64,000 nucleotides of DNA, taken from positions 5,928 through 69,927 of the forward strand of contig JBAYES010000001.1 in NCBI GenBank assembly GCA_041667545.1, in the 5' to 3' direction. Each line of letters opens with the position of its first letter. The first letter of the stretch is position 1. Position numbers and translations under genes: made by a program. This DNA is from Candidatus Omnitrophota bacterium. GTDB taxonomy: Bacteria > Omnitrophota > Gorgyraeia > Tantalellales > Tantalellaceae. Positions 3,639-40,789 of the stretch are shown here, in pieces. Below the pieces are notes generated by a model. That model ran no database searches. It was not told where the DNA came from and saw nothing but the letters and a program-made list of their open reading frames with translations.

Positions 3639-3645
3639 TATTTGA

Positions 3646-20797: not shown

Positions 20798-20803
20798 GGT
20801 CTT

Positions 20804-20846: not shown

Positions 20847-20874
20847 AGAAAAACTGTAAAAAAAGGAAACAAAC

Positions 20875-24465: not shown

Positions 24466-24503
24466 AAGCGACCGAAGCAATCTAATAAAATAAAAATAAG
24501 AAG
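24447..24503 (+). promoter_or_regulatory. conserved terminal element CGTCGTTGCGAGG...CCGAAGCAATCTAATAAAATAAAAATAAG, copy 1 of 3
   Basis: The CCGAAGCAATYTAATAAAATAAAAATAA tail recurs almost exactly at 30106-30141 and 32957-32992. Confidence 0.7.
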
Positions 24504-24535: not shown

Positions 24536-24572
24536 TCCATAGACCATAGTCGATAGTCCATGGTTTGGGAAC
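24536..24572. repeat. CCATRGTC short repeats, fourth occurrence
   Basis: ggtagtccatagaccatagtcgatagtccatggtttgg. Confidence 0.8.
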
Positions 24573-24587
24573 ATGACTCCGGGTCTC

Positions 24588-24628
24588 GTGCCAGGTTCAC
24601 AAAAGCGGGTTCCCATTACGAACCTGGC
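24588..24628 (+). promoter_or_regulatory. conserved 42-nt upstream element, copy 2
   Basis: gtgccaggttcacaaaagcgggttcccattacgaacctggc, about 70 nt upstream of the 24699 start. Confidence 0.75.
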
Positions 24629-24698
24629 GAAGGGCGGAACGCCCCCGCCGTCATCCTGAGGAGCCGAAGGCGACGAAGGATCCCAAAAAAGGAAAACA

Positions 24699-26012: not shown

Positions 26013-26016
26013 TCTT

Positions 26017-26058
26017 GTGCCGGGTTAACAAAAGCAGGTTCTCATTACGAACCTGGCA
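26017..26058 (+). promoter_or_regulatory. conserved 42-nt upstream element, copy 3
   Basis: gtgccgggttaacaaaagcaggttctcattacgaacctggca, starting 5 nt after the upstream stop and about 45 nt before the 26104 start. Confidence 0.75.
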
Positions 26059-26103
26059 TAAAAAAGCGCAACTTCTCTCGCGGTCAAAAAAAAGGAGTCA
26101 CAC

Positions 26104-27036: not shown

Positions 27037-27069
27037 GGGTGAGGGCAAAGAGGTAAGGGGCACAAAGCC

Positions 27070-27366
27070 CCGTCATTGCGAGGAATGAACGAAGTGAGTG
27101 ACGAACCAAACGCGTCTTCTCCGTCATTGCGAGGAACGAACGAAGTGAGTGACGAACCAAACGCGTCTTCTCCGTCATTGCGAGGAACGAACGAAGTGAG
27201 TGACGAACCAAACGCGTTTTCTCCGTCATTGCGAGGAACGAACGAAGTGAGTGACGAACCAAACGCGTTTTCTCCGTCATTGCGAGGAACGAACGAAGTG
27301 AGTGACGAATCAAACGCGTTTTCTCCGTCATTGCGAGGAACGAACGAAGTGAGTGACGAAGCAAAC
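27070..27366 (+). repeat. tandem repeat array C: about 5.8 copies of a 51-bp unit CCGTCATTGCGAGGAACGAACGAAGTGAGTGACGAACCAAACGCGTCTTCT
   Basis: Copy starts at 27070, 27121, 27172, 27223, 27274 and 27325. The last copy ends ...GACGAAGCAAACTAAATAAACATG at the carbamoyltransferase start. Confidence 0.95.
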
Positions 27367-27375
27367 TAAATAAAC

Positions 27376-29205
27376 ATGAAAAACAACAAAACCTACATAT
27401 TAGGAATATCCGCTTACTATCACGACGCGGCAGCGGTTCTCCTGGAAGACGGCAATATTATCGCAGCCGCCCAGGAAGAGCGGTTCACCCGCAAAAAGCA
27501 CGACCCGTCATTTCCTCTGAAGGCGGTTGAATATTGTCTTACCGGTGCCGATATCAAAATAGAAGACGTTGACATTGTGGCTTTCTACGATAAACCCTTT
27601 CTCAAATTCGAAAGGCTTCTCGAAACTTATGTGGCCTACGCGCCTTTCGGCATAAGATCTTTCATACAGGCCATGCCTCCCTGGGTAAAACAGAAACTCT
27701 TCATGAAAGAGCATATAAAAAGCGAACTCGGATACAAGGGTAGAATAATATTCCCCGAACATCACCATTCCCACGCTTCAAGCGCGTTCTACCCCTCGCC
27801 TTTCGAGGAAGCGGCCATACTTACGGTTGACGGTGTGGGAGAATGGGCCACGGCAAGCATAGCAAAAGGCAGCGGCAGCAAGCTGGAACTTTTAAAAGAG
27901 ATAAAGTTCCCGCATTCCCTGGGGCTTCTTTATTCGGCGTTCACTTACTATTGCGGGTTCAGGGTAAATTCCGGAGAGTATAAACTTATGGGGCTTGCCC
28001 CCTATGGCGAACCTAAATACGCGGAACTCATAACGGACAAACTTATTGACATTAAGGATGACGGATCGTTCAAGCTTGATCTCAGATATTTTAACTATTG
28101 TACAGGCCTTACCATGACGAACAGGAAATTCCATTCTCTTTTCGGCGGCCCGCCAAGAAAGAAAGAAGGCGCGCTTCTTCAAAAACATATGGATATAGCC
28201 CGTTCCATACAGGATGTGACCGAAACAGTTATCATGAAGATGGCAAAATATACCCGCAACCTTACAGACTGCCGCGATCTTTGCATGGCGGGAGGCGTAG
28301 CCCTGAACTGTGTGGCGAACGGCAAGATGGTTCGGGAAGGACTTTTTGACAATATATGGATACAGCCGGCTTCATCCGATGCCGGAGGCGCCCTCGGCGC
28401 GGCTTTGGCAGCATGGCATGAGTGTATGGGCCGGGAAAGGCCGGTAGATCATGGGCGTGACTCGCAAAAGGCAAGTTTACTCGGACCGGAGTTTTCCGAC
28501 AGTGAGATAGAGGGCTATCTCATCAAGGAAAAGATTCCTTATAACAAGGTCCCTCCGGAAGAGATCTCAAAACGAACGGCTGATCTTATAGCTTCGGAGA
28601 ATGTTATCGGCTGGTTTCAGGGAAGAATGGAATTCGGGCCGAGAGCCCTTGGCGCCAGAAGTATTCTGGGAGACCCGAGATCCGAGAAAATGCAGTCTTT
28701 AATAAACCGAAAGATAAAATTCAGGGAATCCTTCAGGCCGTTCGCGCCCAGTATTCTACTTGAATCCGCGAAAGAATATTTCAGCATGGAAGGTGAAAGT
28801 CCGTACATGCTTATGGTGTTCCCGGTATCCGAAAATAAAAGAGTGAAAAATACTTCAGGAGAAGAACTATTTGGAATAAACAAACTCAAGGAAAAACGCT
28901 CGCTTGTCCCGGCCATAACCCATGTAGATAACTCCGCGAGAGTCCAGACAGTTAAACAGGAGGATAATCCGGCATATTACGATCTTATAAATGAGTTCAA
29001 GGTGAGGCACAACTGTCCACTTGTCATAAACACATCTTTTAACGTCAGGGGAGAACCCATAGTCTGCACACCGGCAGACGCCTACAGATGTTTTATGCGT
29101 ACCAATATGGATTATCTTGTAATGGGTAATTTTATTATCGACAAAAAAGATCAGGATCCTTCAAGAATAAAGCTTGAAGAAGTCAATAATTTTGAATTAG
29201 ACTGA
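27376..29205 (+). CDS. carbamoyltransferase (NodU/CmcH/SxtI family)
   Basis: N-terminal ILGISAYYHDAAAVLL, the HHHSHASSAF metal motif and a C-terminal YrdC-like domain. The protein is 609 aa. Confidence 0.85.
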   Translation: MKNNKTYILGISAYYHDAAAVLLEDGNIIAAAQEERFTRKKHDPSFPLKAVEYCLTGADIKIEDVDIVAFYDKPFLKFERLLETYVAYAPFGIRSFIQAMPPWVKQKLFMKEHIKSELGYKGRIIFPEHHHSHASSAFYPSPFEEAAILTVDGVGEWATASIAKGSGSKLELLKEIKFPHSLGLLYSAFTYYCGFRVNSGEYKLMGLAPYGEPKYAELITDKLIDIKDDGSFKLDLRYFNYCTGLTMTNRKFHSLFGGPPRKKEGALLQKHMDIARSIQDVTETVIMKMAKYTRNLTDCRDLCMAGGVALNCVANGKMVREGLFDNIWIQPASSDAGGALGAALAAWHECMGRERPVDHGRDSQKASLLGPEFSDSEIEGYLIKEKIPYNKVPPEEISKRTADLIASENVIGWFQGRMEFGPRALGARSILGDPRSEKMQSLINRKIKFRESFRPFAPSILLESAKEYFSMEGESPYMLMVFPVSENKRVKNTSGEELFGINKLKEKRSLVPAITHVDNSARVQTVKQEDNPAYYDLINEFKVRHNCPLVINTSFNVRGEPIVCTPADAYRCFMRTNMDYLVMGNFIIDKKDQDPSRIKLEEVNNFELD

Positions 29206-29793: not shown

Positions 29794-29952
29794 ATGGGAA
29801 AAATGGGGATAATGAGAGAATTATGGGACTTCATGAGAGTCCGGAAAAAGTGGTGGCTTCTGCCCATAATAATAATGCTGCTTCTTCTGGGGCTTTTGTT
29901 AATATTCACCCAGTCCTCAGCAGTAGCCCCGTTCATATACACGTTGTTTTGA
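29794..29952 (+). CDS. SxtK-like/DUF5989-like small membrane protein
   Basis: MGKMGIMRELWDFMRVRKKWWLLPIIIMLLLLGLLLIFTQSSAVAPFIYTLF. The RKKWWL...APFIYTLF pattern matches small proteins found after carbamoyltransferase genes. I prefer this internal ATG over the ORF start at 29710. Confidence 0.5.
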   Translation: MGKMGIMRELWDFMRVRKKWWLLPIIIMLLLLGLLLIFTQSSAVAPFIYTLF

Positions 29953-30062
29953 GCAAAGAGGTAAGGGGTAAGAGGCAAGGGGCAAGAGGTAAGGGCAGGG
30001 GGCGAAGGGCGGAGAGCAAAGGGCAAAGAGCGAAGGGCAAAGAGCGAAGGGCGGAGATCGGA
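29953..30062 (+). repeat. purine-rich (GGTAAGGGG/CAAGAGG/CGAAGGG)n tract
   Basis: gtaaggggtaagaggcaaggggcaagaggtaagggcagggggcgaagggcggagagcaaagggcaaagagcgaagggcaaagagcgaagggcggag. It contains four or more GGG/GGGG runs. Confidence 0.85.
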
Positions 30063-30076
30063 AGGATCGCAAAGCC

Positions 30077-30141
30077 CCGTCTTTGCGAGGTCCCCGGAAC
30101 GGGGGCCGAAGCAATCTAATAAAATAAAAATAAAACAAGTC
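30077..30141 (+). promoter_or_regulatory. structured element CCGTCTTTGCGAGG-[CCCCGGAACGGGG hairpin]-CCGAAGCAATCTAATAAAATAAAAATAAAACAAGTC
   Basis: A near-identical element at 32927-32992 has its hairpin changed to CCTCCGGAACGGAGG, which is compensatory covariation. It lies about 25 nt upstream of the UXS start. Confidence 0.7.
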
Positions 30142-30164
30142 TCGGTGTAAAAAAAAGGACAATC

Positions 30165-31106
30165 ATGCGTATACTACTAACCGGCGGAGCCGGATTTCTC
30201 GGGTCACATCTGTCTGAACGCCTTCTAAAAGAGGGACATAAAGTTGTCTGTATGGACAACCTTATAACCGGCAGAACGGAGAATATATCTCACCTTATCT
30301 CTAATGAGGACTTTGAATTCATCAAACATGATGTCTCAAAATTCATTATTGTTGACGAGAAACTGGATTATGTTTTTCATTTTGCATCTCCCGCAAGCCC
30401 CGAAGACTATCTCAATCACCCGATAAAAACCCTTAAAGTGGGTTCTCTGGGGACACATAACGCTCTTGGCGTGGCAAAAGAGCATGAAGCAAAATTCCTT
30501 CTCGCGTCCACTTCCGAGGTTTACGGAGACCCTCTTGTAAACCCCCAGCCGGAAACTTACTGGGGCAACGTAAACCCCATAGGGCCGCGCGGAGTTTATG
30601 ACGAAGCAAAGAGATTCGCGGAAGCTATAACGCTTGCTTATCACAGGGTTCACGGTGTAGATACTAAAATAGCCCGTATCTTCAATACTTACGGGGAAAG
30701 AATGCGCCATCATGACGGCCGGGTAGTACCGAATTTCATAGATCAGGCATTGAAGGGAGAACCACTTACAGTTTACGGTGACGGGACACAGACGAGAAGT
30801 TTTTGCTACGTGTCAGACCTTATTGAGGGGATATTCCGCCTTATGAATTCAGATCTTAACGAGCCGGTAAACATCGGAAACCCCATAGAGCTGAGCGTTC
30901 TTGAATTTGCGGAAAAAATAAAAGAAATATCCGGAGCTGATTGTGAAATAGTCTTCAAGCCGCTCCCGGTCAACGACCCAAAAGTAAGAAGGCCGGACAT
31001 AACCAAAGCAAAAAAAGAACTCGGCTGGGAACCCGAGATTAATTTAGAGCAAGGATTAAAGAGAACTATAGAATGGGCCAAGAGAGAAGCAAAAACGACT
31101 CAGTAG
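30165..31106 (+). CDS. UDP-glucuronate decarboxylase (UDP-xylose synthase)
   Basis: [16 protein letters not shown] start, YDEAKR catalytic motif and 313-aa length fit UXS. The upstream ugd supplies UDP-GlcA. Confidence 0.8.
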
Positions 31107-31115
31107 AATAATGCT

Positions 31116-31367
31116 TCCGTCATTGCGAGGAGTGGACGAAAAGAGTATTCCTCCGTCGTTGCGAGGAGCGAACGAAGAGAGTATTTCTCCGTCGTTGCGA
31201 GGAGCGAACGAAGAGAGTATTCCTCCGTCGTTGCGAGGAGCGAACGAAAAGAGTATTCCTCCGTCGTTGCGAGGAGCGAACGAAAAGAGTATTCCTCCGT
31301 CGTTGCGAGGAGCGAACGAAGAGAGTATTTCTCCGTCGTTGCGAGGAGCGAACGAAGAGAGCGACGA
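31116..31367 (+). repeat. tandem repeat array D: seven copies of a 36-bp unit TCCGTCGTTGCGAGGAGCGAACGAAGAGAGTATTYC
   Basis: Copy starts at 31116, 31152, 31188, 31224, 31260, 31296 and 31332. Ends ...GAGCGACGAAGCAATCTCAAAAAATCAAGGAGCAATATG at the gmd start. Confidence 0.95.
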
Positions 31368-31394
31368 AGCAATCTCAAAAAATCAAGGAGCAAT

Positions 31395-32375
31395 ATGAGC
31401 AACAAAAAAGCGCTGATAACCGGTATAACCGGCCAGGACGGCAGTTATCTTGCCGAATACCTGCTTAAAAAAGGATACGAGGTGTATGGTGTTGTGAGAC
31501 GGGTTGCCTTGGAAGACCAAAAGCACAGAATGTGGCGCATAAACCACATAGCCGACAAAATTAAATTTCACTCCGGGTCGCTTGAAAGTTATCCCAGTCT
31601 TTTTAAGATAGTGGAGAAGATCAGGCCTGACGAATGTTATCATCTTGCGGCTCAGAGTTTTGTGACCTATTCTTTTGAAGACGAATTCTCGACCCTTAAT
31701 GCCAATATTAACGGAACGCATTACATTTTATCGGCTCTTCAGAGCGTGGTTCCCGACTGCCGGTTCTATTTCGCCGCGTCCAGCGAGATGTTCGGGCGTG
31801 TAGAAGAAGTTCCTCAAACTGAGATAACAAAGTTCCACCCCAGGTCAGCATATGGCATTTCAAAAGTAGCGGGTTTTGATCTTACAAGGAATTACCGTGA
31901 GGCGTACAATATGTACGCGGTAAGCGGCATACTTTTTAACCATGAATCGCCGCGCAGAGGATATGAATTCGTTACGAGGAAGATAACTTCTCTTGCGGCG
32001 CAAATTAAACTTGGCAAAGCCCAAAAGCTGTATCTTGGCAATCTTGATGCCAAAAGAGACTGGGGCCATGCGCGGGAGTATGTCAAAGCCATGCATGCTA
32101 TGCTTCAGCAGGATGAACCGTATGACTATGTGATAGGTACGGGAGAAACCCACTCGGTGCGTGAATTTGCCGAAATAGCCTTTAAATGCCTTGATCTGGA
32201 TTACAAGAAATATGTGGAAATCGACCAGAATTTTTTCCGTCCCGCAGAAGTAGATCTTCTCATCGCCGATCCGTCAAAAGCAAAAAAAGAACTGGGCTGG
32301 GAATACGATCTCTCGTTCGAAGATCTTGTCTCGGAGATGGTAAGATCAGATTACGACCATCTGTCAAAGAGCTAA
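31395..32375 (+). CDS. gmd: GDP-mannose 4,6-dehydratase
   Basis: KALITGITGQDGSYLAEYLL start, YxxxK catalytic motif and 326-aa length fit Gmd. Confidence 0.9.
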   Translation: MSNKKALITGITGQDGSYLAEYLLKKGYEVYGVVRRVALEDQKHRMWRINHIADKIKFHSGSLESYPSLFKIVEKIRPDECYHLAAQSFVTYSFEDEFSTLNANINGTHYILSALQSVVPDCRFYFAASSEMFGRVEEVPQTEITKFHPRSAYGISKVAGFDLTRNYREAYNMYAVSGILFNHESPRRGYEFVTRKITSLAAQIKLGKAQKLYLGNLDAKRDWGHAREYVKAMHAMLQQDEPYDYVIGTGETHSVREFAEIAFKCLDLDYKKYVEIDQNFFRPAEVDLLIADPSKAKKELGWEYDLSFEDLVSEMVRSDYDHLSKS

Positions 32376-32398
32376 GGGCTAAGGGCGAAGAGCAATCT

Positions 32399-32523: not shown

Positions 32524-32871
32524 ATGGGTGCAAAGATGAGTGTATTCCACAAGGAACTTGGAAGTGGACGCTGGAATGAGATGCCATTCTGCGAGCAAAT
32601 GGCGAATATCGGAAGCGAAGTAAGCAGGGCATTCAGATGGCGTGAAAAAGACAGAAAGGATCTTTCACTTAACTCGGCAAACAGGGCTTTGGAGCTTTTG
32701 GACATGACCACAAGACCCATAAAAAAATACGCCCGGTTAAAGGAACTATCGCGAGTAAGAGAAGTTTTGGTTGATTTTTTCTATGGTAGCAACGAATACG
32801 GTTCTTCTGGGATATCATTGCTAAAATATTTCGACCATTTTAACTATCTGGCGAGAATAGGTAAGGGGTAG
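32524..32871 (+). CDS. small hypothetical protein
   Basis: 115-aa ORF bracketed by repeat elements, with a weak all-alpha resemblance to MazG-like NTP pyrophosphohydrolases. No confident family assignment. Confidence 0.4.
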   Translation: MGAKMSVFHKELGSGRWNEMPFCEQMANIGSEVSRAFRWREKDRKDLSLNSANRALELLDMTTRPIKKYARLKELSRVREVLVDFFYGSNEYGSSGISLLKYFDHFNYLARIGKG

Positions 32872-32925
32872 GGGCGAAGGGGCAAGAGGTAAGGGGTAAG
32901 AGCAAAGGGCGGAAGGGTCACAAAA
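32866..32925 (+). repeat. purine-rich GGTAAGGGG tract
   Basis: ggtaaggggtaggggcgaaggggcaagaggtaaggggtaagagcaaagggcggaaggg. Confidence 0.85.
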
Positions 32926-32926
32926 T

Positions 32927-33031
32927 CTCGTCGTTGCGAGGCCTCCGGAACGGAGGCCGAAGCAATTTAATAAAATAAAAATAAAACAAGTCCCGGGATT
33001 GCTTCGGTCGCTCCGCTTCCTCGCAACGACG
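32927..33031 (+). promoter_or_regulatory. inverted pair of CGTCGTTGCGAGG...CCGAAGCAAT elements flanking a conserved A-rich core
   Basis: Forward copy at 32927-32992 with a CCTCCGGAACGGAGG hairpin. An inverted partial copy ATTGCTTCGGTCGCTCCGCTTCCTCGCAACGACGG at 32997-33031 gives a roughly 100-nt imperfect palindrome. Confidence 0.7.
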
Positions 33032-33091
33032 GGAAACGACCGAAGAATCTAAGGACTATTTAGCAATTTAACAACAAGGAGATACAGTACA

Positions 33092-34216
33092 ATGCAAGTA
33101 CCGCTTTTAGACCTGAAAGGTCAGTACAAAAGCATTAAACAGGAAATAGATAAGACAATAGCCGATGTGGTCGAAAGCCAGTACTTCATACTTTCCTCTG
33201 AAGTATCGGAGTTTGAGAAGGAAGTTGCTTCTTATACCGGTGTTCCAGCTGGTGTCGGCGTGGCTTCCGGCACAGACGCCATAATCCTTGCGTTGAGAGC
33301 CGCGGGCATAGGCAAGGGAGACAGAGTAATAACCACACCTTTTACTTTTTTCGCTACCGCCGAGTCGATTTCCGTCCTCGGAGCTAAGCCAGTCTTCGTT
33401 GATATCGACCCCGAAACTTACAATATAGACCCAAAGGCGATCGAAGAAGCCATGCTCAAAATACAAAAACGCGATAACGCCGAACGCGGTACGATCAAGG
33501 CTATCATCCCGGTCCATCTCTACGGCCAATGCGCCGACATGGGCCCTATAATGGAGATAGCCCTTAAATACGGGCTTAAAGTAATAGAAGACTGCGCCCA
33601 GGCCATGGGAGCCGTCTACAAAGGGAAGAAAGCGGGGAGTTTCGGCCTCGCCGGAGCATTCAGTTTCTTTCCCAGCAAGAATCTGGGCGGATTCGGAGAC
33701 GGAGGAATGGTAGTTTCGGACGATGACGGTATTATTTCAGCCGTGAAAAAGTTAAGGGTACATGGCAGCTCAAAACAGTACATTCATGACGAAATAGCGT
33801 ATAATTCCAGGCTCGATAGCCTTCAGGCCGCGATACTGAGGGTTAAGCTAAGAAAGCTCAATTTCTGGATAGAAAAACGTATAGAGATCGCCAGAAGATA
33901 CAATGAGGCCTTTCAGGGAACGGATATCGTTACTCCCAAAACCGGAGAAGGAAATACACACACTTATCATCAATACACCATATCGGTTCCTGACAGAGAT
34001 GGTCTGCTAAATTATCTGGGGGAAAAGGGAATAGGCTCAAGAGTATATTATCCCGTACCCATGCACCTTCAGCCGTGTTATAAAGATCTGGGCTACAAAA
34101 AGGGAGATTTCCCCATATCGGAAAAAGCCGCAAAAAGCGTACTCTCTCTCCCGGTATATCCCGAACTTACGGAAGAAATGATACAATACGTCATCGACAC
34201 AGTACTTGCGTTTTAG
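33092..34216 (+). CDS. DegT/DnrJ/EryC1/StrS-family sugar aminotransferase (PLP-dependent)
   Basis: N-terminal VPLLDLKGQY, the GSFG..GAFSFFPSKNLG region and 374-aa length. Confidence 0.85.
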   Translation: MQVPLLDLKGQYKSIKQEIDKTIADVVESQYFILSSEVSEFEKEVASYTGVPAGVGVASGTDAIILALRAAGIGKGDRVITTPFTFFATAESISVLGAKPVFVDIDPETYNIDPKAIEEAMLKIQKRDNAERGTIKAIIPVHLYGQCADMGPIMEIALKYGLKVIEDCAQAMGAVYKGKKAGSFGLAGAFSFFPSKNLGGFGDGGMVVSDDDGIISAVKKLRVHGSSKQYIHDEIAYNSRLDSLQAAILRVKLRKLNFWIEKRIEIARRYNEAFQGTDIVTPKTGEGNTHTYHQYTISVPDRDGLLNYLGEKGIGSRVYYPVPMHLQPCYKDLGYKKGDFPISEKAAKSVLSLPVYPELTEEMIQYVIDTVLAF

Positions 34217-34301
34217 TTTTCCGAAAAAGCCTTTGACAAAGAAAAATTATAGTGTATAATCTATAATACATATAACTTATAAGCTATATGGCAAGGCTAA
34301 T

Positions 34302-35012
34302 ATGGACAAAAACATTAGAGAAGCTCAAAAAGAAGTTTTAAAGGTTTTTTCGCGGCATGCCCAAAATTTCGCGCTTTCCGGCGGAACGGCCTTAGAACTT
34401 TACTATCTGCATCACAGATTTTCAATTGATCTGGATTTTTTTTCTCCCGTATATGATGTGAAAGAGATAGACCTTCTGATCAAAGAGTTAAAGAAAGACC
34501 TAAAGACCGATATAAAATTGGAAAATGAACTCATGTCCGGGAATAAAGCAAAAGTTCGTTTTTATACGATGCCCATAAGTGATTCAGAAAAGACGTTGAA
34601 AATAGATTTTGTTGAAGACGTGATAGTAGATAAACCTGAAATTGAGAATTTTGAAGGTGTCAGAGTTTATGGGGCGCATAATATATATTTGCAAAAGGCC
34701 TCGGCCATTACGGGAACTCAGATAAACACAGACCACATAGGACGGGAGATCATGCAGGGCAGGGTGGAAGCCAGGGACGCATTCGATCTATATATGCTTT
34801 CAAAAAAAATAAGTCCGCTTCACGTGTTTTTAAAAAGTTCTCCGGGGTATATACAACGGGGGATAATTCAATGGTATAGAAGGTTCTCAAGAACAGATCT
34901 TAAGCTATCACTGCTTGACCTGGATATCTATTCAAGAACATTCGACTCAAAGGAAATGATAATTCATCTGGAAGAAGAAATAGAAAAATTCATGCAGGAA
35001 ACCATAATATGA
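34302..35012 (+). CDS. AbiEii-like nucleotidyltransferase (DUF1814 family)
   Basis: GGTALELYYLHHRFSIDLDFF matches the AbiEii N-terminal NTase motif. Confidence 0.55.
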   Translation: MDKNIREAQKEVLKVFSRHAQNFALSGGTALELYYLHHRFSIDLDFFSPVYDVKEIDLLIKELKKDLKTDIKLENELMSGNKAKVRFYTMPISDSEKTLKIDFVEDVIVDKPEIENFEGVRVYGAHNIYLQKASAITGTQINTDHIGREIMQGRVEARDAFDLYMLSKKISPLHVFLKSSPGYIQRGIIQWYRRFSRTDLKLSLLDLDIYSRTFDSKEMIIHLEEEIEKFMQETII

Positions 35013-35533
35013 GCAAAGCAAATTCATCATATTCAAAGTATTTCTGGGACCTGAACGAAAAAGCGCTCACGGAAACAGCGGATATCTTAAAGGATCCCGA
35101 TCATGAGAGATTTCAGCAGAGAATGGTCAGACTGCTTTCCCGCTGTCAGAGCCCGGAAGAGCTTTTTTCTGTAATTTCAAAAGACAACTTTGTCAAAGCT
35201 TGGCCTAAATTGAGCAGGTACTGGGCAAAAATAGAAAAAATCTCGGATTTCAGAGACTGGTGGCAGACAATATACGAGGAGATCCTGAGAAGACAAGGCA
35301 AGGCCACGAAGGCAATGGGAGAGCCTTCGGCGCTCTTTAAGAATATCGGGGCAAAGATCAGGGAAGCAAGGACAGAAAAGGAAATCAGCCAGAAAGATCT
35401 TGCTTTGGCGGTTGGAATGAAACAGCCCGATATTTCCAAGATCGAAGAGGGTAAAAAGAACATTACTCTTGAAACTTTAGCCCGAATATGTAAATATCTG
35501 GATATTCGAGAAATAGGGATAATCGGAAAATAG
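35009..35533 (+). CDS. XRE-family HTH protein with an unknown N-terminal domain
   Basis: C-terminal ISQKDLALAVGMKQPDISKIEEGKKNITLETLARICKYLDI helix-turn-helix. An ATGA start/stop overlap links it to the upstream NTase gene. Confidence 0.55.
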   Translation: MSKANSSYSKYFWDLNEKALTETADILKDPDHERFQQRMVRLLSRCQSPEELFSVISKDNFVKAWPKLSRYWAKIEKISDFRDWWQTIYEEILRRQGKATKAMGEPSALFKNIGAKIREARTEKEISQKDLALAVGMKQPDISKIEEGKKNITLETLARICKYLDIREIGIIGK

Positions 35534-35551
35534 TAGGAAAGGGGGACAGGC
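35456..35551 (+). repeat. 96-bp direct repeat, copy 1 (3' end of the XRE gene plus AGGAAAGGGGGACAGGC)
   Basis: About 96% identical to 37614-37709. Confidence 0.9.
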
Positions 35552-35605
35552 TACTTTTTATTCCTACAGTTCCCACAATATAAAAAGTTGCCTGTCCCCC
35601 TTTTT
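35541..35605. terminator. long-stem hairpin with a T-run on either strand (GGGGGACAGGC...GCCTGTCCCCC TTTTT)
   Basis: 11-bp perfect GC-rich stem, extendable to about 20 bp through ACTTTTTA/TAAAAAGT, followed by TTTTT. A T-run also follows on the - strand. Second copy at 38463-38523. Confidence 0.55.
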
Positions 35606-35694
35606 CACAACGAGCAACCCCGTACCACTCGCTTCGCTCGGGCACGGGTAGGCGAGCACCCAGCAACCTCTATGGGCGAGTCAACATTTTAACG

Positions 35695-36462
35695 TTGGCG
35701 AAACTATGGAAACATGATCGATCGACGAGGTGCATGTTGAATAAACCGGAACTTAAACAGTATTTAATGAGCGGTCAGTTCCTGAATGCTCTGTCCAGAC
35801 GGAAATATTTTAGCTTTGACGAGCTTTATGCCAAATTGTCGAAAAAGTATCCGGATTTAAAAAGAGTACAGCTATCTCGCTATATGTTTGATGTTGTTAA
35901 AAATGGAAAAATATATGGCGCCGGTCGAGGATGGTACTCTTTGATCAAAAGTCCTTTGACGGCAGAGCCGGAGTTTGTTCAAGAAATTGTGGATCTTCTG
36001 GCCAATGAGTATCCGCAAGTTGTTTTTTCCTGTTGGTCGACCAAACATATCCGGTCTTTTATGCATCACCTGCTTGCGAAATTTGTGACATTTGTTTATA
36101 CGCAGTGGGAAGCGATGGAGATGATGGGAGATTTTCTGGAATCGGAAGGATACAAGGTATGGGTCAATCCGCACGGGAAGGATATTGATCGTTTCCATGT
36201 GAATATGGAGAAAACCGTTGTTATTCGCCCATTGATTTCTCGTGTTCCGGTTAATGGCCATTTTGCGACATTTGAGAAAATTCTGGTCGATCTGGGGGTG
36301 GAGATCCGGCAGTTGCCTTTAATGGATGAGAGCGAATATGACACCTTGTTATCGAATGCTTTGACAGCCGGACGTGTGGATGTCGGAACTCTGATTAGTT
36401 ATGCCAAGAGGCGGCGGTTAAGTATTGACAAGACTGTATTCAATATTCGCAAGGCGTTATGA
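35695..36462 (+). CDS. AbiEi-like antitoxin/transcriptional regulator
   Basis: N-terminal region with a GAGRGWYSL motif typical of AbiEi-family wHTH domains. Sits immediately upstream of an AbiEii gene. Confidence 0.5.
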   Translation: MAKLWKHDRSTRCMLNKPELKQYLMSGQFLNALSRRKYFSFDELYAKLSKKYPDLKRVQLSRYMFDVVKNGKIYGAGRGWYSLIKSPLTAEPEFVQEIVDLLANEYPQVVFSCWSTKHIRSFMHHLLAKFVTFVYTQWEAMEMMGDFLESEGYKVWVNPHGKDIDRFHVNMEKTVVIRPLISRVPVNGHFATFEKILVDLGVEIRQLPLMDESEYDTLLSNALTAGRVDVGTLISYAKRRRLSIDKTVFNIRKAL

Positions 36463-36515
36463 ATTAAATCCACATTTATCAAAAGTGTGGATTTAATTCA
36501 TATAGGGAATCTTAT

Positions 36516-37592
36516 ATGATTGAAAACAGGTGTTTTACGGCATCGTGGATTGAGCAAAAAAGGCGCGAAATCGGGCGTGTTGATCCGGCTCTCTTGGAAA
36601 AAACCATATATGCGATGGCACTTCTTTGCGGGCTGGCCCGGTCAAAAATGCCTTTTGTCTTCAAGGGCGGGACCAGTTTGATACTGCTCATTAAGGACTT
36701 CCGCAGGCTTTCCATCGATGTCGATATCGTTGCCGATATTCCACGGTCAGAATATGAGGTGATTCTGGAGGAGATCGGGAAGACGGCTCCGTTTTTGGGC
36801 TACGTGGAGGATAAGCGCGGTGACCGCGGCTTGCCAAGGCGGACGCATTTTAAGTTTGCGTATCATTCAGTCGTTTCTAAGCGCAAGGATTATGTTTTGC
36901 TGGATATTCTGGAAGAGAAGAATATCTATCCGACAACAAAGATGGTTGCCATTGAGCCTTCATTTGTAGAAGTATCACGGCGAGTTTCCGTACGAATGCC
37001 GACAGCCGAATGTCTCTTGGGGGACAAGCTTACGGCATTTGCTCCGAATACGATAGGTGTTCCTTACGAAAGGAAGTCCGGAATGCAGATCATCAAGCAC
37101 TTGTTTGATATCGGGGAGCTTTTTGGAGTTGCCGAAGATATGAACATGGTAAGACGGGCGTATGAAGCAATCGCCAGAGCTGAGATCGGCTATAGAGAGA
37201 ACGCTTTTATTTTGGAAGAGGCATTGACGGATACTTTTAATACTGGCGTCAAAGTTTGTATGATGGGCATGAGAGGAGAAAGGGCGGGTCGGGAAGCGGA
37301 GGTCTTGCGGAAGGGAATTCAACGGGTTGAAAGCCATCTGGTTAATACGTTGTTCACACTGACAGAAGCTAGATTAGCGGCATCTCGGGCGATTCTGTTA
37401 TCCGCTTTGGTGAGAGAAAAAACAGACCGCAGAGGTCTGGGGGCTTTTCGTTGGAAGCCACAAGATGACGGGGGATTGGGTTCGCTTTCGCTAAACGGGG
37501 AATTGGAGAGACTGAACCGGATCAAGTTGATCTCTCCGGAAGCGTTTCATAATCTCCACACGGCCCAAGGCTTTTTAGTCGAGAAGATATGA
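36516..37592 (+). CDS. AbiEii-family nucleotidyltransferase toxin (type IV TA/Abi)
   Basis: FKGGTSLILLIKDFRRLSIDVDIV NTase motif and DUF1814-like length of 358 aa. Confidence 0.65.
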   Translation: MIENRCFTASWIEQKRREIGRVDPALLEKTIYAMALLCGLARSKMPFVFKGGTSLILLIKDFRRLSIDVDIVADIPRSEYEVILEEIGKTAPFLGYVEDKRGDRGLPRRTHFKFAYHSVVSKRKDYVLLDILEEKNIYPTTKMVAIEPSFVEVSRRVSVRMPTAECLLGDKLTAFAPNTIGVPYERKSGMQIIKHLFDIGELFGVAEDMNMVRRAYEAIARAEIGYRENAFILEEALTDTFNTGVKVCMMGMRGERAGREAEVLRKGIQRVESHLVNTLFTLTEARLAASRAILLSALVREKTDRRGLGAFRWKPQDDGGLGSLSLNGELERLNRIKLISPEAFHNLHTAQGFLVEKI

Positions 37593-37613
37593 TAGTGGCC
37601 TGTTCGTTGATCA

Positions 37614-37709
37614 AAGAACATTACCCTTGAAACTTTAGCCCGAATATGTAAATATCTGGATATTCGAGAAATAGGGATAAGCGGAAAATAGCAGGAAAAG
37701 GGGACAGGC
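37614..37709 (+). repeat. 96-bp direct repeat, copy 2, containing an orphan copy of the last 78 nt of the 35009..35533 gene
   Basis: aagaacattacccttgaaactttagcccgaatatgtaaatatctggatattcgagaaatagggataagcggaaaatagcaggaaaaggggacaggc. Confidence 0.9.
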
Positions 37710-37728
37710 GGGCGACAGGAACAAAACC

Positions 37729-38454
37729 ATGTATCTATCAGTGATCATACCAGCCTACAACGAAGAAAAAAACATCGAAGGGACTCTTGCCGAAATAGAG
37801 GCATATCTCGCGGGTAAGGATTTAGCATCCGAAGTCATCCTCATCGACGACGGCTCGATAAACTGGACAGTTGTTAAGGCTCGCGAATTTGAAGAACGAA
37901 TTCGCGATTTCAGGATAATCGAAAGCAAGCCAAATCACGGGAAGGGATACGTTGTCAGGAGAGCCATGCTGGAGGCGCAAGGCGAGTACAGTCTTTTTAT
38001 GGACGCAGATAACTCCACTTCGATAAAGGAATTAGAAAATTTTTTACCCGCCATAAGCGATAAATTTGACATCTACATAGCTTCCCGAAGGATATCCGGT
38101 TCCAAAGTGAAAGTTCCTATAATGCGCCGCGCTTTAGGCAATGTGTACATATTTGTAGCGCGCATCCTCCTCGGCATAGGTATAAGCGATATTAATTGCG
38201 GGTTCAAAATATACAGCAAAAAGTCCGTTCAAGACATTTTTACAAAGCAGCTCATGAACGATTGGAGTTTCGACGCCGAAAATCTGTTTGTTGCGAAAAA
38301 GTACGGTTACAAGATAAAAGAGATTCCGGTAGAATGGAAGCACAAATACACGTCAAAAGTAAGGCCGTTTAGTGACGGGATCAAAAGTTTCACAAGTCTC
38401 GTAAAAATAAGAACAAACGACCTTTTGGGGAAATACCGCATAAATAGAGGATAG
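37729..38454 (+). CDS. GT2 polyprenyl-phosphate sugar transferase (DPM1/GtrB/ArnC-like)
   Basis: LSVIIPAYNEEKNIEGTL N-terminus, DDGS and DAD motifs and 241-aa length. Confidence 0.8.
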   Translation: MYLSVIIPAYNEEKNIEGTLAEIEAYLAGKDLASEVILIDDGSINWTVVKAREFEERIRDFRIIESKPNHGKGYVVRRAMLEAQGEYSLFMDADNSTSIKELENFLPAISDKFDIYIASRRISGSKVKVPIMRRALGNVYIFVARILLGIGISDINCGFKIYSKKSVQDIFTKQLMNDWSFDAENLFVAKKYGYKIKEIPVEWKHKYTSKVRPFSDGIKSFTSLVKIRTNDLLGKYRINRG

Positions 38455-38462
38455 AGGAAAAG

Positions 38463-38523
38463 GGGACAGGCTGCTTTTATCCCTACGGTTCCCACAATAT
38501 AAAAAGTTGCCTGTCCCCCTTTT
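38463..38523. terminator. long-stem hairpin with T-run, copy 2
   Basis: GGGGACAGGCTGCTTTTAT...ATAAAAAGTTGCCTGTCCCCC TTTT. Confidence 0.55.
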
Positions 38524-38538
38524 ACGGATGCCTTCAAT

Positions 38539-39231
38539 ATGATAACGATAGTATTACCAACATACAATGAAGCGGAGAATACGCCAAGGCTTATAATGAG
38601 CCTTGAGAATAGTTTTAAAGACTCTCTTGAGATCCTGGTGGTGGATGACGATTCTCCGGATAAGACCTGGCAAATAGTCGAGAGTATGGGGCTTCCCGAA
38701 GTGCGCGTTATAAGACGTATAGGCGAAAGGGGTCTTGCCACGGCTATTGCGAGAGGAGTTGACGAAGCCAGGGGTGATATAGTAGGTTGGATGGATGTGG
38801 ATATGTGTCATCCCCCGTCACTACTTCCTCAAATGTTGTCTTTTTTGAACGAATATGATGTTGTTATAGGATCAAGGTACGTTAATGGCGGGAAAGATGA
38901 CAGGGGACCATTCAGGGTGTTTACAAGCAGGCTGATTAACCGGTTCGCGGGTCTTTTATTGGGATTTTATGTTAAGGATTATGACAGCGGATTCATTCTT
39001 ATAAAGAAAGAGGTAATAGATAGAGTTGGGTTCCCATCAAGCGGATATGGGGATTATTTCATAGAGCTTATGTACAGGTGTAAAAGAAATGGATTTAAGG
39101 TTAAAGAGGTTCCATATGTTTTCAGGGATAGGGAAGTGGGAGAATCTAAAACCGCCGGTAGTCTTATGGATTTCTTCAAATTGGGATTTGGCTACATTAC
39201 CCGCATAGTAAAATTAAGGTTCAGATCTTGA
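38539..39231 (+). CDS. GT2 polyprenyl-phosphate sugar transferase (DPM1-like)
   Basis: ITIVLPTYNEAENTPRL, VVDDDSPDKT and WMDVDM (DxD) motifs. Confidence 0.8.
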   Translation: MITIVLPTYNEAENTPRLIMSLENSFKDSLEILVVDDDSPDKTWQIVESMGLPEVRVIRRIGERGLATAIARGVDEARGDIVGWMDVDMCHPPSLLPQMLSFLNEYDVVIGSRYVNGGKDDRGPFRVFTSRLINRFAGLLLGFYVKDYDSGFILIKKEVIDRVGFPSSGYGDYFIELMYRCKRNGFKVKEVPYVFRDREVGESKTAGSLMDFFKLGFGYITRIVKLRFRS

Positions 39232-39662
39232 ATAAAGGTCGGGGGAGGGGGGCTATGGAATGTATAAAGTCCAAAAAGGGCAACATAATAGCTATTGTGA
39301 TACGTGAAAAAGACAGGTTTGAGGGGATAAAATTCTTCACTCCTTCTAATTTTTCTCAACAAGTAGGCCTCTTAACCCACAAGAAAGGATCTATAGTAAA
39401 ACCTCACGTTCATAAACTTATTGAAAGAAAGGTAGAGATAACTCAGGAGGTTCTTTTTGTCAAAAAAGGAAAAATAGCTCTGTATCTCTATGATGAAAGT
39501 AACAAGCACATGGCTACAAGGTATCTAAAAAAAGGCGATACGGTAATTCTCGCAAGTGCCGGGCATGGCATAAAAGTCCTGCAGGAAAGCGTTATTTTTG
39601 AGGTAAAACAGGGCCCTTATGCGGGTGCCGACGATAAAGTGTATCTTAAGAAAAAACTTTAG
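39228..39662 (+). CDS. cupin-fold sugar 3,4-ketoisomerase-like protein (FdtA/WxcM C-terminal-like)
   Basis: 144-aa protein with a His-rich cupin motif HKKGSIVKPHVH. Positioned directly before a DegT aminotransferase, as in FdtA-FdtB pairs. Confidence 0.5.
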   Translation: MNKGRGRGAMECIKSKKGNIIAIVIREKDRFEGIKFFTPSNFSQQVGLLTHKKGSIVKPHVHKLIERKVEITQEVLFVKKGKIALYLYDESNKHMATRYLKKGDTVILASAGHGIKVLQESVIFEVKQGPYAGADDKVYLKKKL

Positions 39663-39670
39663 GGAGACAC

Positions 39671-40789
39671 ATGAAATTCATACCGGTAAACGAACCCCTG
39701 CTGGGCAAAAAAGAATTAAAATATGTGACAGATTGTATAAAAACAGGCTGGATATCGTCTAAAGGCGAATACATAAATAAATTTGAAAACAAGTTTGCTG
39801 AAGTTTGCGGGGTAAAGTACGGCATATCTACCACAAACGGGACTACAGCTCTTCATCTTGCCCTTGCTTCCCTGGGAATAGGCAAAGGTGATGAAGTTAT
39901 AATGCCAACTTTTACCATGATAGCCACGGCTTATGCGGTTCTCTATACGGGGGCTAAACCTGTTTTTGTCGACTCCGAAGAGAGGACATGGAACATGGAC
40001 ACATCCAAAGTCGAAAAGCTCATAAATAAAAATACAAAGGCTATACTTCCCGTGCATATTTACGGCCATTCGGTGGATATGGATCCTTTGCGGAAGCTTG
40101 CCCGAAAATATGATCTTTACCTGGTTGAAGATGCTGCAGAAGCGCATGGCGCCGAGTATAGGGGGGAGAGATGCGGATCTTTGGGGGACATAGGATGTTT
40201 TAGTTTCTATGGCAACAAGATCATAACTACCGGTGAAGGAGGGATGATAGTTACCAATAATAGAAAAATAACCGAAAAAGCCAGACTGTTGAAGGATCTG
40301 GCGCATTCTCCGGGGAAAAGGTTTCTTCATTCTGAGCTGGCATATAACTATCGTATGACCAATATGCAGGCGGCGGTCGGACTGGCTCAAGTCGAGCAGA
40401 TAAACAAATTCATTAGAAAAAAAAGAAAAATAGCTCAGACCTATAAGGAAAATCTAAAAGGTGTAAAAGGTTTGAGGCTTCCTGTCGAAGAGAAATGGGT
40501 AAAAAATGTTTATTGGATGTACGCGATCCTGATCGAAAAAGGGTTCGGAATTACGAGAGATAAGCTTATGACCGAACTTGCTGAAGAAGGAGTAGGCACA
40601 AGGGCGTTTTTCGTTCCTATGCATAGGCAGCCTGTGATCGTGAATAACGGGATATGCGATAAAAAAACTTCATATCCTGTCGCCGACGATATAGCGGAAA
40701 GAGGATTGTACCTTCCCACGGGCATGACACTCAGGGAAAAAGATATCGTAACGGTATGTAACAAGTTGAGGGAAATCCAACAAAAGTAG
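39671..40789 (+). CDS. DegT/DnrJ/EryC1-family sugar aminotransferase
   Basis: FIPVNEPLLGKKE...GWISSKG N-terminus and the CFSFYGNKIITTGEGG lysine region. Confidence 0.85.
   Translation: MKFIPVNEPLLGKKELKYVTDCIKTGWISSKGEYINKFENKFAEVCGVKYGISTTNGTTALHLALASLGIGKGDEVIMPTFTMIATAYAVLYTGAKPVFVDSEERTWNMDTSKVEKLINKNTKAILPVHIYGHSVDMDPLRKLARKYDLYLVEDAAEAHGAEYRGERCGSLGDIGCFSFYGNKIITTGEGGMIVTNNRKITEKARLLKDLAHSPGKRFLHSELAYNYRMTNMQAAVGLAQVEQINKFIRKKRKIAQTYKENLKGVKGLRLPVEEKWVKNVYWMYAILIEKGFGITRDKLMTELAEEGVGTRAFFVPMHRQPVIVNNGICDKKTSYPVADDIAERGLYLPTGMTLREKDIVTVCNKLREIQQK

Follow-up and report, generated by a model that had tools for sequence, protein, structure and literature searches.

An AbiEi/AbiEii pair in an Omnitrophota glycan cluster: a 97-nt direct repeat as the probable scar of its insertion

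Results

Genes and features of the locus

The window is the whole stretch of 64,000 nucleotides that was analysed, from a contig of a Candidatus Omnitrophota bacterium. Related loci are designated by numbers with the prefix L. The features referred to below are as follows, in window coordinates.

34233-34260, + strand: sigma-70-like promoter, TTGACA-N16-TATAAT (12/12), serving the NTase-XRE module
34302-35012, + strand: gene for an AbiEii-like nucleotidyltransferase (NTase), 236 aa; Pfam PF08843, E = 2.5e-17; PADLOC AbiEii
35009-35533, + strand: XRE-family HTH gene (XRE), 174 aa; Pfam HTH_3, E = 7e-14; its 3' end is repeat copy 1
35455-35551, + strand: repeat copy 1, the true XRE 3' end, stop codon and left arm of hairpin H1
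35538-35603, no strand: hairpin H1 of the GGGGACAGGCTAC family, 24-bp arms, 18-nt loop, A-run and T-run flanks
35613-35667, + strand: segment A, native sequence 3' of the XRE stop; 89% identity to L216 3060-3115
35665-35733, + strand: segment B, the AbiE-block leader, common to L216-L218; 93% identity to L216 1031-1099
35734-36462, + strand: AbiEi antitoxin-like gene (DUF6577); Pfam PF20217, E = 3e-33; PADLOC AbiEi, E = 2e-37
36458-36502, no strand: 20-bp palindrome between AbiEi and AbiEii, 95% complementary, conserved in L216-L218
36516-37592, + strand: AbiEii toxin-like nucleotidyltransferase gene, 358 aa; Pfam PF08843; PADLOC AbiEii, E = 2e-96
37593-37612, + strand: AbiE-block tail, 20 nt, ending at an illegitimate junction where ...GGCCTGTTCGTTGATC meets AAAGAAC; same junction in L216
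37613-37709, + strand: repeat copy 2, an orphan XRE 3' end with a solo left arm, joined to GT2-1
37696-37709, no strand: solo left arm of the hairpin family, unable to fold (-1.8 kcal/mol)
37729-38454, + strand: glycosyltransferase GT2-1, Pfam PF00535, ancestral downstream neighbour of XRE or DegT
38458-38522, no strand: hairpin H2, a second full copy, directly 3' of the GT2-1 stop

The upstream NTase gene overlaps XRE by 4 nt. It varies among relatives, being missing in L003, L207 and L216/217, while the promoter is kept upstream of either NTase or XRE in the window, L003, L207, L009 and L216. XRE has more than 390 homologues, mostly in Omnitrophota. The AbiEi/AbiEii pair resembles AbiE type IV toxin-antitoxin and abortive infection systems in having an antitoxin-like gene upstream and an NTase toxin-like gene downstream, both with strong profile matches. 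Judged by gene order and profiles, it is predicted to be an AbiE-type module, with a putative role in phage defence or as a toxin-antitoxin pair. It differs from typical AbiE systems in that the antitoxin is of the DUF6577 type, and in that a second AbiEii-like NTase lies just upstream, in the reverse order (NTase then XRE).

No match to a recombinase or transposase family was found among the Pfam-scanned ORFs of at least 120 aa in the window, where three ORFs were covered by PADLOC and NCBIfam only. The window has no integrase, and neither IntI nor attI, and the insert between the repeat copies codes only for AbiEi and AbiEii. A blastn search of PLSDB gave no plasmid match to the whole repeat-to-repeat unit. 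An Rfam scan of positions 33000-40000 at E ≤ 1 gave a sole match, a spurious miRNA on the AbiEi/AbiEii palindrome, and left the hairpin unmatched.

The direct repeat

A repeat search identified a 97-nt direct repeat, 35455-35551 and 37613-37709, with four mismatches (96% identity). The probability of such a match within 64 kb was calculated by us as about 1e-50 per position pair, which rules out a chance origin. Copy 1 consists of the final 78 coding nt of XRE, the stop codon and then AGGAAAGGGGGACAGGC. Copy 2 retains an open frame of 25 codons with one I to S change; as it lacks a start codon and in-frame stops lie ahead of it, it is an orphan. Both copies have their exact end at GGGGACAGGC, which forms the core of H1's left arm. 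Between them lie 2061 nt, comprising in order the rest of H1, a 105-nt spacer, AbiEi, AbiEii and 20 nt. An earlier, sequence-only reading of this DNA had described much of this correctly: a direct repeat of about 96% identity with four mismatches (its left end placed one base short), copy 1 as the true end of XRE, copy 2 as an orphan before the first GT2 gene, and both copies ending in the left arm of the hairpin. It had also stated that the 2.06 kb between the copies holds only a hairpin and the AbiE pair, which is right for the pair and for part of the hairpin, and leaves the 105-nt spacer unmentioned.

An inserted segment lying between direct repeats, in a sequence that comes from a metagenome assembly, could point either to a transposon-type target-site duplication or to an assembly chimera of two strains joined at the repeat. 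An assembly artefact is an unlikely source: the final k of the assembler, judged from the contig name (k141_...), was 141, so that the repeat is shorter than k, and the copies differ at four positions. Furthermore, the same proteins are on record at NCBI on a 101,050-bp contig, and the identical orphan junction recurs in contigs of three other samples. As for transposition, 97 nt far exceeds the short target duplications (2-15 bp) made by transposases, the repeat search found no terminal inverted repeats on the 2061-nt insert, and no transposase was matched. The two together are scarcely credible, and the earlier suggestion of insertion with a target duplication is not upheld.

The AbiE pair is an insertion in a hot spot

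The relatives compared are all short metagenomic contigs. In L207 the same glycan cluster is present without the AbiE pair, in the order DegT-promoter-XRE-GT2-1-GT2-2, and in L208 and L209, which also lack the pair, the order is DegT-GT2-1-GT2-2. These are the empty sites that the sequence-only reading had suggested seeking, although none is base-exact, because the closest, L207, has a protein identity of only 73-76%. The AbiEi-AbiEii pair in turn occurs in unrelated neighbourhoods, at 83-86% amino acid identity. At the nucleotide level the similarity (80% identity) is confined to 35709-37597: homology to other AbiE loci ends at 37597, and the part of segment B upstream of 35709 is not shared with the AbiE loci L210-L214, which have neither the repeat nor the hairpin. 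With relatives that lack the pair, and the pair in unrelated neighbourhoods, the AbiEi/AbiEii pair is an insertion and a mobile module, and the idea that the repeat is its footprint holds.

The slot after XRE has at least six different occupants among the relatives. XRE is followed by ATPase_2/DUF234 in L004, by four other genes in L009, by AAA_14/DUF4143 in L219, and by a 423-aa gene on the opposite strand in L221-223. This part of the Omnitrophota glycan cluster, from DegT to the first GT2 gene, is a hot spot for cargo. Orphan XRE ends were found only in loci with the AbiE block, among the loci compared; a donor genome that has XRE-AbiE but lacks the orphan was not found.

L004 also contains a mirror-image orphan, namely a GT2 3' end upstream of the cargo, with no hairpin. 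The single type of event proposed below does not account for it.

Comparison with L216-L218

The most informative relatives are L216, L217 and L218, which have the order XRE-B-AbiEi-AbiEii-GGCCTGTTCGTTGATC/AAAGAACATTAC-orphan-A-GT2-1 (the slash marks the junction). They have the same AbiE block, junction and orphan as the window, with a hairpin after neither copy. At this joint (37612/37613 in the window) the AbiEii tail meets the interior of XRE without extended homology, and the same joint is found in L216; the junction of AbiEii with the orphan arose only once. Between the window and L216, B plus AbiE is 96.1% identical, XRE 87.7%, the DegT end 89.9% and the GT2-1 start 74.8%. A block that is 96% identical between flanks of 75-90% identity implies that the block and its orphan "handle" moved by homology-dependent recombination.

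In the part compared, the window copies differ at 1 of 67 positions (1.5%), against 4/97 over the whole repeat, while those of L216 differ at 9 of 67 (13%) and have different tails, i.e. they are different alleles. Copy 1 of the window has five mismatches to X2 of L216 (the orphan type) and seven to eight to the gene type of L216 and L003, and it carries the orphan-type tail GGGATA. We read the 1.5% versus 13% divergence as later homogenisation in the window lineage. Segment A lies 3' of the orphan copy in L216 and 3' of copy 1 in the window. Passing between the two arrangements takes at least two recombination events, plus gain of a hairpin and a partial deletion, whose end points show no clean microhomology.

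Near-identical copies are also what would be expected of a duplication within one genome. On this alternative, template switching or break repair (FoSTeS/MMBIR-like) in a window-like ancestor would have copied AbiE in, with synthesis restarting about 100-240 nt upstream, so that X-tail-(hairpin)-A was doubled in one step; the L216 arrangement would have come later, its left flank being replaced by another XRE allele. The differing position of A fits an ancestor with A on both sides, and partial tandem duplications of "flank plus one arm" recur in the hairpin family. However, an extra illegitimate allele replacement in L216, ending exactly at B, is then required. The AbiE block is moreover so much more alike between lineages than the flanks that transfer between lineages is needed even here. 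We consider this course of events unlikely. It gives the same class of scar, and thus differs from insertion followed by homogenisation only in the order of events.

Hairpins at the locus

H1 has a predicted folding energy of -39.1 kcal/mol (z = -8). H1 and H2 (-39 and -28 kcal/mol) have the GC-rich stem and T-run of an intrinsic terminator, 4-5 nt past stop codons, and are thus predicted to be terminator-like. The promoter/terminator scanner omits both, as its loop limit is 3-8 nt against a loop of 18 nt, and the 24-bp stem is too long for it. H2 was missed by the sequence-only reading.

H1 is missing at the equivalent place in L216, and is an indel between the stop codon and segment A. H2 occurs only in the lineage of the window among the loci compared. 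At the DegT stop there is a clean filled-versus-empty site of about 64 nt, filled in L216, L217 and L003 and empty in the window, L207 and L009. Close relatives thus carry the hairpin at differing gene ends; the hairpin is dispensable and mobile. A hairpin after XRE was considered as the cause of the contig break in L003 and rejected, since in L216 the L003-type tail runs into the AbiE leader hairpin-free.

The sequence-only reading had proposed the hairpin as the recombination site. In its full form, GGGGACAGGC would be an attC- or att-like site at which a recombinase inserts and excises cassettes (AbiE, GT2-1). The core of the arm is the exact end of both copies, and an identical 17-mer, AGGAAAAGGGGACAGGC, is found on both sides of GT2-1. 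A stretch of 3 kb has a hairpin or half-hairpin at each of three module boundaries, the rest of the 64 kb has none, and the hairpin of L003 and L216 marks a fourth boundary of the same hot spot. Nevertheless, L216-L218 have the same AbiE insertion and junction with hairpin-free repeat ends, and there is likewise no hairpin in the AbiE loci L210-214 or at the L004 orphan. The GT2-1-GT2-2 adjacency is ancestral (L207; L208/L209), which means that GT2-1 is no cassette. In the arm, AAAAAGTTGCCTGTCCCC, the stretch GTTGCCT does not match the integron GTTRRRY core; there is no integrase in the window; and elsewhere the hairpin adjoins diverse, mostly housekeeping genes (see below). A role as the site of recombination is therefore very improbable. 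The hairpin is a later-arriving terminator-like repeat, and not the insertion site.

The hairpin family beyond the locus

Our survey of the family comprised 198 copies. They share the core GGGGACAGGCTAC...GTTGCCTGTCCCC, in which 13 nt are invariant and a T.T mismatch is fixed; A/T runs flank the palindrome, and the inner stem and loop vary. At least 12 phyla have members of the family, placed at the 3' ends of genes, and close relatives differ by gains and losses of them. Contexts are convergent (45), co-directional (60) or divergent (7), and the distance from stop to core is mostly below 30 nt.

The 137 proteins flanking the hairpins fall into 174 Pfam families, mostly housekeeping. A defence-related family (AAA_21) accounts for 3 of the 137, and recombinase families, including Pfam Y1_Tnp, are absent from the 25 commonest. 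Enrichment of defence genes or recombinases beside hairpins was rejected on these grounds, and the sequence-only reading's expectation that copies elsewhere would carry variable cargo is not borne out: these roughly 137 neighbours are unrelated genes, and neither variable cargo nor, among the 25 commonest families, a recombinase is seen beside the hairpins.

With respect to the upstream gene, the hairpins face either way at random (45:41, p = 0.75), which rules out a strand-specific RNA element. The flanks lengthen the palindrome by only 4 nt in the median, mostly through A/T runs; insertion into pre-existing palindromes, or an inverted target duplication, was set aside for this reason, although a single filled/empty pair points that way. 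Partial tandem duplications of "flank plus one arm" occur in L018, L024, L122, L150, L191, L077 and L204. A scan of viral contigs gave one match, and thus no link to phage. Literature searches with the motif, alone or with "palindrom" or "terminator", returned only human primers and unrelated genes, and the GTAG families published so far do not include the motif. The family is thus previously undescribed, being absent from Rfam and from the searchable literature.

Discussion

It is concluded, with a probability of about 0.6, that AbiEi/AbiEii was inserted long ago in a homology-dependent manner and that the repeat is the resulting scar, a product neither of site-specific recombination nor of transposition. 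As such the finding is a commonplace insertion scar of a type already known. The AbiE module would have entered the hot spot between DegT and GT2-1, immediately 3' of XRE, with the right side of the insert joined to XRE 78 nt short of its stop codon. This would have stranded the 3' end of the resident XRE as the orphan, copy 2, still attached to its old neighbour GT2-1; the gene is completed by copy 1, a further XRE 3' end. The route may have been gene-side homologous pairing with one illegitimate joint (homology-facilitated illegitimate recombination, HFIR), or integration of a Campbell-type circle carrying the 3' end of the gene; the end product alone fits both. The AbiE block with its orphan handle would then have spread among diverged lineages by homologous recombination. 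In the window lineage the two copies were probably homogenised later, presumably towards the orphan type, to which copy 1 is closer. The hairpin would have arrived after the stop codon and become part of the homogenised or duplicated tract, and the second hairpin copy would then have lost its loop and right arm, presumably by deletion, to leave the solo arm. These later events would explain why the repeat runs into the left arm and stops there.

HFIR-like displacement that leaves orphans, and C-terminal displacement in Rhs, have been described (Kirchberger et al., 2017, PMC5361080), and that paper cites earlier background on HFIR and displacement (de Vries & Wackernagel, 2002; Jackson, 2009; Poole, 2011). 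The present locus resembles 3'-end displacement in Rhs, CDI and T6SS loci in that a new module lies beside a conserved gene, the resident 3' end has been pushed downstream as an orphan, and the orphan retains a stretch of the conserved gene and so creates a direct repeat, with no dedicated recombinase. There too, the repeat supports further homologous exchange, and arrays vary between strains. That copy 2 adjoins GT2-1, the neighbour of XRE in L207, fits 3'-end displacement; the difference of alleles that goes with it is seen in L216 (9/67, different tails), compared with 1/67 in the window. Those loci have a polymorphic toxin, and as cargo a new toxin tip with its immunity gene; here the gene is a small XRE regulator beside an AbiEii-like NTase in a glycan cluster, an entire AbiE pair is the cargo, and the orphan has just 78 coding nt and encodes nothing useful. 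Campbell-type integration likewise gives an insert between direct repeats of a shared segment, with one copy completing the gene. It differs in that no circular form, replicon or integrase is known for the 2.1-kb block, and it requires that the junction of the AbiE tail with XRE (15/X) already existed in the circle.

The hairpin family has its closest parallel in REP and REPIN sequences, which are GTAG-tagged extragenic palindromes (Bertels & Rainey, 2011, PMC3116915; Di Nocera, 2013, PMC3733652). Like these, it is short and palindromic, lies 3' of genes in either orientation as single units and inverted doublets, contains GTAG, is multi-copy in some genomes, with clusters now and then repeated along with the DNA beside them, and comes and goes between close relatives. 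Unlike in REP, its GTAG (CTAC) lies inside a long stem, between the core and the inner stem, rather than forming an unpaired tag, and the single unit has only an A/T mini-stem in place of a GC-rich stem-loop. REP families are lineage-specific, whereas the same 13-nt core occurs here across many phyla, at low copy number in the window. Uptake-signal sequences (DUS/USS) form inverted pairs that double as terminators; they are family-specific, occur about once per kb, and are found also inside genes. The hairpins resemble them in the fixed core of 10-13 nt, AT-rich flanks, inverted pairs 3' of genes with variable loops, either orientation and solo copies, but their core is sparse, almost entirely intergenic and cross-phylum. 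We suggest tentatively, at rather less than even odds, that the family consists of undescribed cross-phylum mobile palindromes that insert after stop codons, act as bidirectional terminators and promote local rearrangements (partial arm duplications and solo arms) that would have helped to shape the hot spot.

The locus is a worked example of a defence or toxin-antitoxin module that gets into the surface-glycan clusters of uncultivated Omnitrophota, and passes from one to another, with no dedicated recombinase: part of the gene next door travels with the AbiE module and serves as a homology handle. Polymorphic-toxin loci are known to follow the same logic, so that nothing in the principle is new. 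The locus also warns against assuming that, where a repeat ends in a hairpin, recombination took place at that hairpin. The hairpin family, which is the more novel by-product, may matter more than the scar. If true, an invariant core in at least 12 phyla would imply a conserved trans-acting enzyme or frequent horizontal spread, and the family could be a new class of REP-like mobile terminators.

The direct repeat and its genomic setting

The window sits in a 100.7-kb metagenome contig (ENA ERZ27247361), and its proteins are also found at NCBI in a 101,050-bp contig labelled as a Candidatus Omnitrophota MAG. All window genes are on the + strand, with housekeeping genes (miaB, miaA, hflX, hrcA-grpE-dnaK-dnaJ) followed by a long nucleotide-sugar/glycan cluster. 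Among the window ORFs of at least 120 aa scanned with Pfam, none matched a recombinase or transposase family. At the window start there is a Fic/DOC-family gene fragment (3-539, truncated by the window; PADLOC candidate system PDC-S23, E = 4e-71), which adjoins an HNH endonuclease gene (741-1220).

A repeat search of the window confirmed the direct repeat described in the sequence-only reading, as 35455-35551 and 37613-37709, 97 nt with 4 mismatches. Copy 1 consists of the final 78 coding nt of the XRE-family gene, its stop codon and AGGAAAGGGGGACAGGC. Copy 2 still has an open frame of 25 codons with a single I to S change. Stop codons precede this frame, which lacks a start codon, making copy 2 an orphan. 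Between the copies lie, in order, the remainder of hairpin H1, a 105-nt spacer, AbiEi, AbiEii and 20 nt. Both copies terminate in GGGGACAGGC, which occurs exactly in only three places in the 64 kb: at the end of copy 1, where it forms the left-arm core of H1, in the arm after copy 2, and in a second complete hairpin, H2. The sequence-only reading had overlooked H2, and also that the arm after copy 2 is solo and unable to fold.

Features around the repeat
34233-34260, + strand: perfect sigma-70-type promoter
34302-35012, + strand: second AbiEii-like NTase, immediately 5' of XRE with a 4-nt overlap
35009-35533, + strand: XRE-family gene, 174 aa, Pfam HTH_3
35538-35603: hairpin H1, 66 nt, with 24-bp arms, an 18-nt loop, -39.1 kcal/mol and z = -8
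35734-36462, + strand: AbiEi, Pfam DUF6577, PADLOC AbiEi E = 2e-37
36516-37592, + strand: AbiEii, PADLOC AbiEii E = 2e-96
37696-37709: solo arm after copy 2, unable to fold
38458-38522: hairpin H2, complete, directly 3' of the GT2-1 stop

The window and loci L004, L009, L219 and L221 all have the AbiEii-like NTase 5' of XRE. It is missing from L003, L207 and L216/L217, all of which share the conserved TTGACA-N16-TATAAT promoter, and therefore XRE is not always partnered by a toxin. Between the AbiEi stop and the AbiEii start lies a near-perfect 20-bp palindrome (36458-36502), also conserved in L216-L218, that could serve the pair as operator or attenuator.

The AbiE pair and its insertion site

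Relatives carrying the same cluster were reached via homologues of XRE, GT2-1 and AbiEii. Empty sites were found among them: L207 has the order DegT-promoter-XRE-GT2-1-GT2-2-PMT, with XRE directly before GT2-1, while L208 (a 524-kb contig of GCA_964421015.1) and L209 have DegT-GT2-1-GT2-2-PMT, without any toxin-antitoxin genes. At other loci the position 3' of XRE is occupied differently.

Occupants of the position 3' of XRE
L004: ATPase_2/DUF234
L009: four other genes
L219: AAA_14/DUF4143
L221-L223: a 423-aa gene on the opposite strand

Conversely, the AbiEi-AbiEii pair occurs in unrelated neighbourhoods in L210-L214, with 83-86% amino acid identity. Nucleotide homology to these loci (80%) is limited to 35709-37597, which takes in the two genes, 24 nt on their 5' side and 5 nt on their 3' side. 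The empty sites, the varied occupants and the unrelated contexts of the pair together indicate that the site is a cargo hot spot. The suggestion that AbiEi/AbiEii is an insertion is thus supported by its absence from L207, L208 and L209 and its presence elsewhere, and the pair is an import into this hot spot. The proposal that the repeat is a target duplication was not borne out.

L004 carries a second scar, in which an orphan GT2 3' end of 126-130 nt is fused to the XRE stop (3618-3753 vs 5954-6092), upstream of the ATPase_2/DUF234 gene and an intact GT2. The orphan is 82-84% identical to the real end, and there is no hairpin at this scar. It is related to the scar in the window, as its mirror image.

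Position of the hairpin in L216-L218

Loci L216, L217 and L218 come from three JGI samples (3300077201, 3300077319 and 3300077567), and their XRE is 85% identical at the amino acid level. Their left half reads DegT, hairpin, promoter, XRE, about 40 nt, B (the AbiE leader), AbiEi and AbiEii, and their right half AbiEii, ...GGCCTGTTCGTTGATC|AAAGAACATTAC..., orphan XRE 3' end, segment A, (GCAACGA)n and GT2-1. The AbiEii tail is joined to the orphan exactly as at 37612|37613 in the window, so the insertion arose only once.

No hairpin follows either repeat copy in L216, L217 or L218. Their hairpin, 90% identical to H1 with the loop included, is instead directly after the DegT stop. L003 also has a hairpin at this place, which is empty in the window, L207 and L009, making the DegT stop a clean filled/empty hairpin site of about 64 nt (window 34185-34275; L216 295-450, L217 1637-1792, L003 1745-1945). 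In this single case the insert has landed ahead of a TTTTCCG that was already there, and on its left it is flanked by TCGAAAAA, which is similar to the reverse complement of that target. Compared with L216, H1 is an indel separating the stop codon from segment A, and H2 is found in the window alone among the loci compared. Since L216-L218 share the AbiE block, the junction and the orphan without these hairpins, the hairpin must have reached the repeat after the AbiE event, and the idea that it served as the recombination site is not supported. L208, which lacks the toxin-antitoxin genes, has different palindromes at the same gene ends (9920-10000 and 10715-10810), with the similar cores GGTGACAGGCACC...GGTGCCTGTCACC and GGTGCCTGGCAC...GTGCCAGGCACC.

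Separately, GT2-1 of the window has a 5-nt insertion (CCGCA) just 5' of the ancestral stop (38420-38454), giving a C-terminal extension of 5 aa relative to L207, L208 and L004.

Divergence of the copies and proposed route of insertion

The two copies in L216 have just 67 nt in common, with 9 mismatches (13%) and different tails, GGATTTTAG vs GGGATAGAAGATTAG. The window copies have a single mismatch in those 67 nt (4/97 overall), and both have the orphan-type tail. The 105-nt spacer of the window is composite: segment A (35613-35667) corresponds to the sequence 3' of the orphan in L216, and segment B (from 35665) is the AbiE leader common to both lineages. Between the window and L216, B plus AbiE is 96.1% identical, but XRE only 87.7%, the DegT end 89.9% and the GT2-1 start 74.8%. 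Because the block is more alike than its flanks, it must have crossed lineages, together with some or all of the orphan, after the flanks had diverged. Loci with the AbiE block are the only ones in which an orphan XRE end was seen.

The module probably entered by pairing within XRE plus one illegitimate joint or, alternatively, as a circle with an XRE end that underwent Campbell-type integration. Entry would displace the resident XRE 3' end, which would keep its link to GT2-1, and the AbiE block with this handle would then spread via homologous recombination. The low divergence of the copies in the window might also reflect the reverse order, in which duplication in situ came first and was followed by allele replacement in L216, which we consider less likely. 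Under displacement followed by spread, the tract of XRE end, tail, hairpin and A would have been copied or converted onto the other repeat copy in the window lineage. Afterwards the downstream hairpin would have lost its loop, its right arm and most of A, a loss that would also remove a strong terminator ahead of GT2-1. The closest documented precedent is displacement resembling homology-facilitated illegitimate recombination, with orphan genes left in T6SS, Rhs and CDI loci (PMC5361080); the scar in the window is a fresh example of a kind already known.

Other repeats and palindromes

Purine-rich 7-nt tandem arrays (AAGGGGT, AAGAGGT and GAAGGGC types) occupy intergenic spacers of the glycan cluster (2596-2702, 24313-24398, 29942-30069, 32365-32392, 32854-32927), and similar arrays occur in L003, L009 and L216 (GCAACGA x4 5' of GT2-1). 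Longer tandem repeats are at 27019-27417 (51 nt x7), 31075-31397 (36 nt x8), 21286-21627 (57 nt x5, reaching from the end of one gene into the beginning of the following one) and 24368-24457 (45 nt x2). Spacers 5' of glycan genes also share a direct repeat (30021-30145 / 32872-32996, 125 nt, 79%) and an inverted repeat (24443-24482 / 32997-33036, 40 nt, 93%), which may be shared leader or promoter modules.

Another palindromic, terminator-like repeat of 68 nt has three copies at gene ends, 71-84% identical (20785-20852, 24569-24636, 25998-26065), with the stem GTGCCGGGTTC/GAACCTGGCAC and, as in H1, GTTCCCA in the loop.

A hairpin family across phyla

A scan with the pattern GGGGACAGGCT-N20-45-TTGCCTGTCCCC matched 78 genome loci and 118 metagenome loci (L011-L206). 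They come from, among others, Bacillota (Desulfoscipio geothermicus DSM 3669, about 10 copies), a Bryobacteraceae MAG (about 25 copies), Aminicenantes, Nitrospirota, Myxococcota, Desulfobacterota, Omnitrophota, Elusimicrobiota, Verrucomicrobiota, WOR-3, Bipolaricaulota and Actinomycetota. Oryzomonas japonica Red96 is a further isolate genome rich in copies. A separate scan of viral contigs gave a single hit. The core GGGGACAGGCTAC...GTTGCCTGTCCCC does not vary, has a fixed T.T mismatch and is flanked by A/T runs; the inner stem and loop are variable, with compensatory changes. Conservation extends outside the search pattern, to TAC 3' of the left core, G 5' of the right core and the A-run/T-run flanks. 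Solo units (AAAAGTAGCCTGTCCCCTTTT) recur, as do partial tandem duplications that comprise a flank and one arm.

The 198 non-redundant copies include 45 in convergent, 60 in co-directional and 7 in divergent gene contexts. Most are less than 30 nt from a stop codon, and they show no preferred orientation with respect to the gene (45:41). The abutting genes belong to 174 Pfam families and are mostly housekeeping, with no recombinase family among the 25 commonest. Variable cargo was not seen at these other hairpin copies.

The family has no Rfam entry, and none was found in the searchable literature. It resembles a mobile terminator of the REP/REPIN sort, but differs from published REPs (PMC3733652) with respect to the GTAG tag. 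Of the findings made here, this hairpin family, shared by many phyla, is the most novel.
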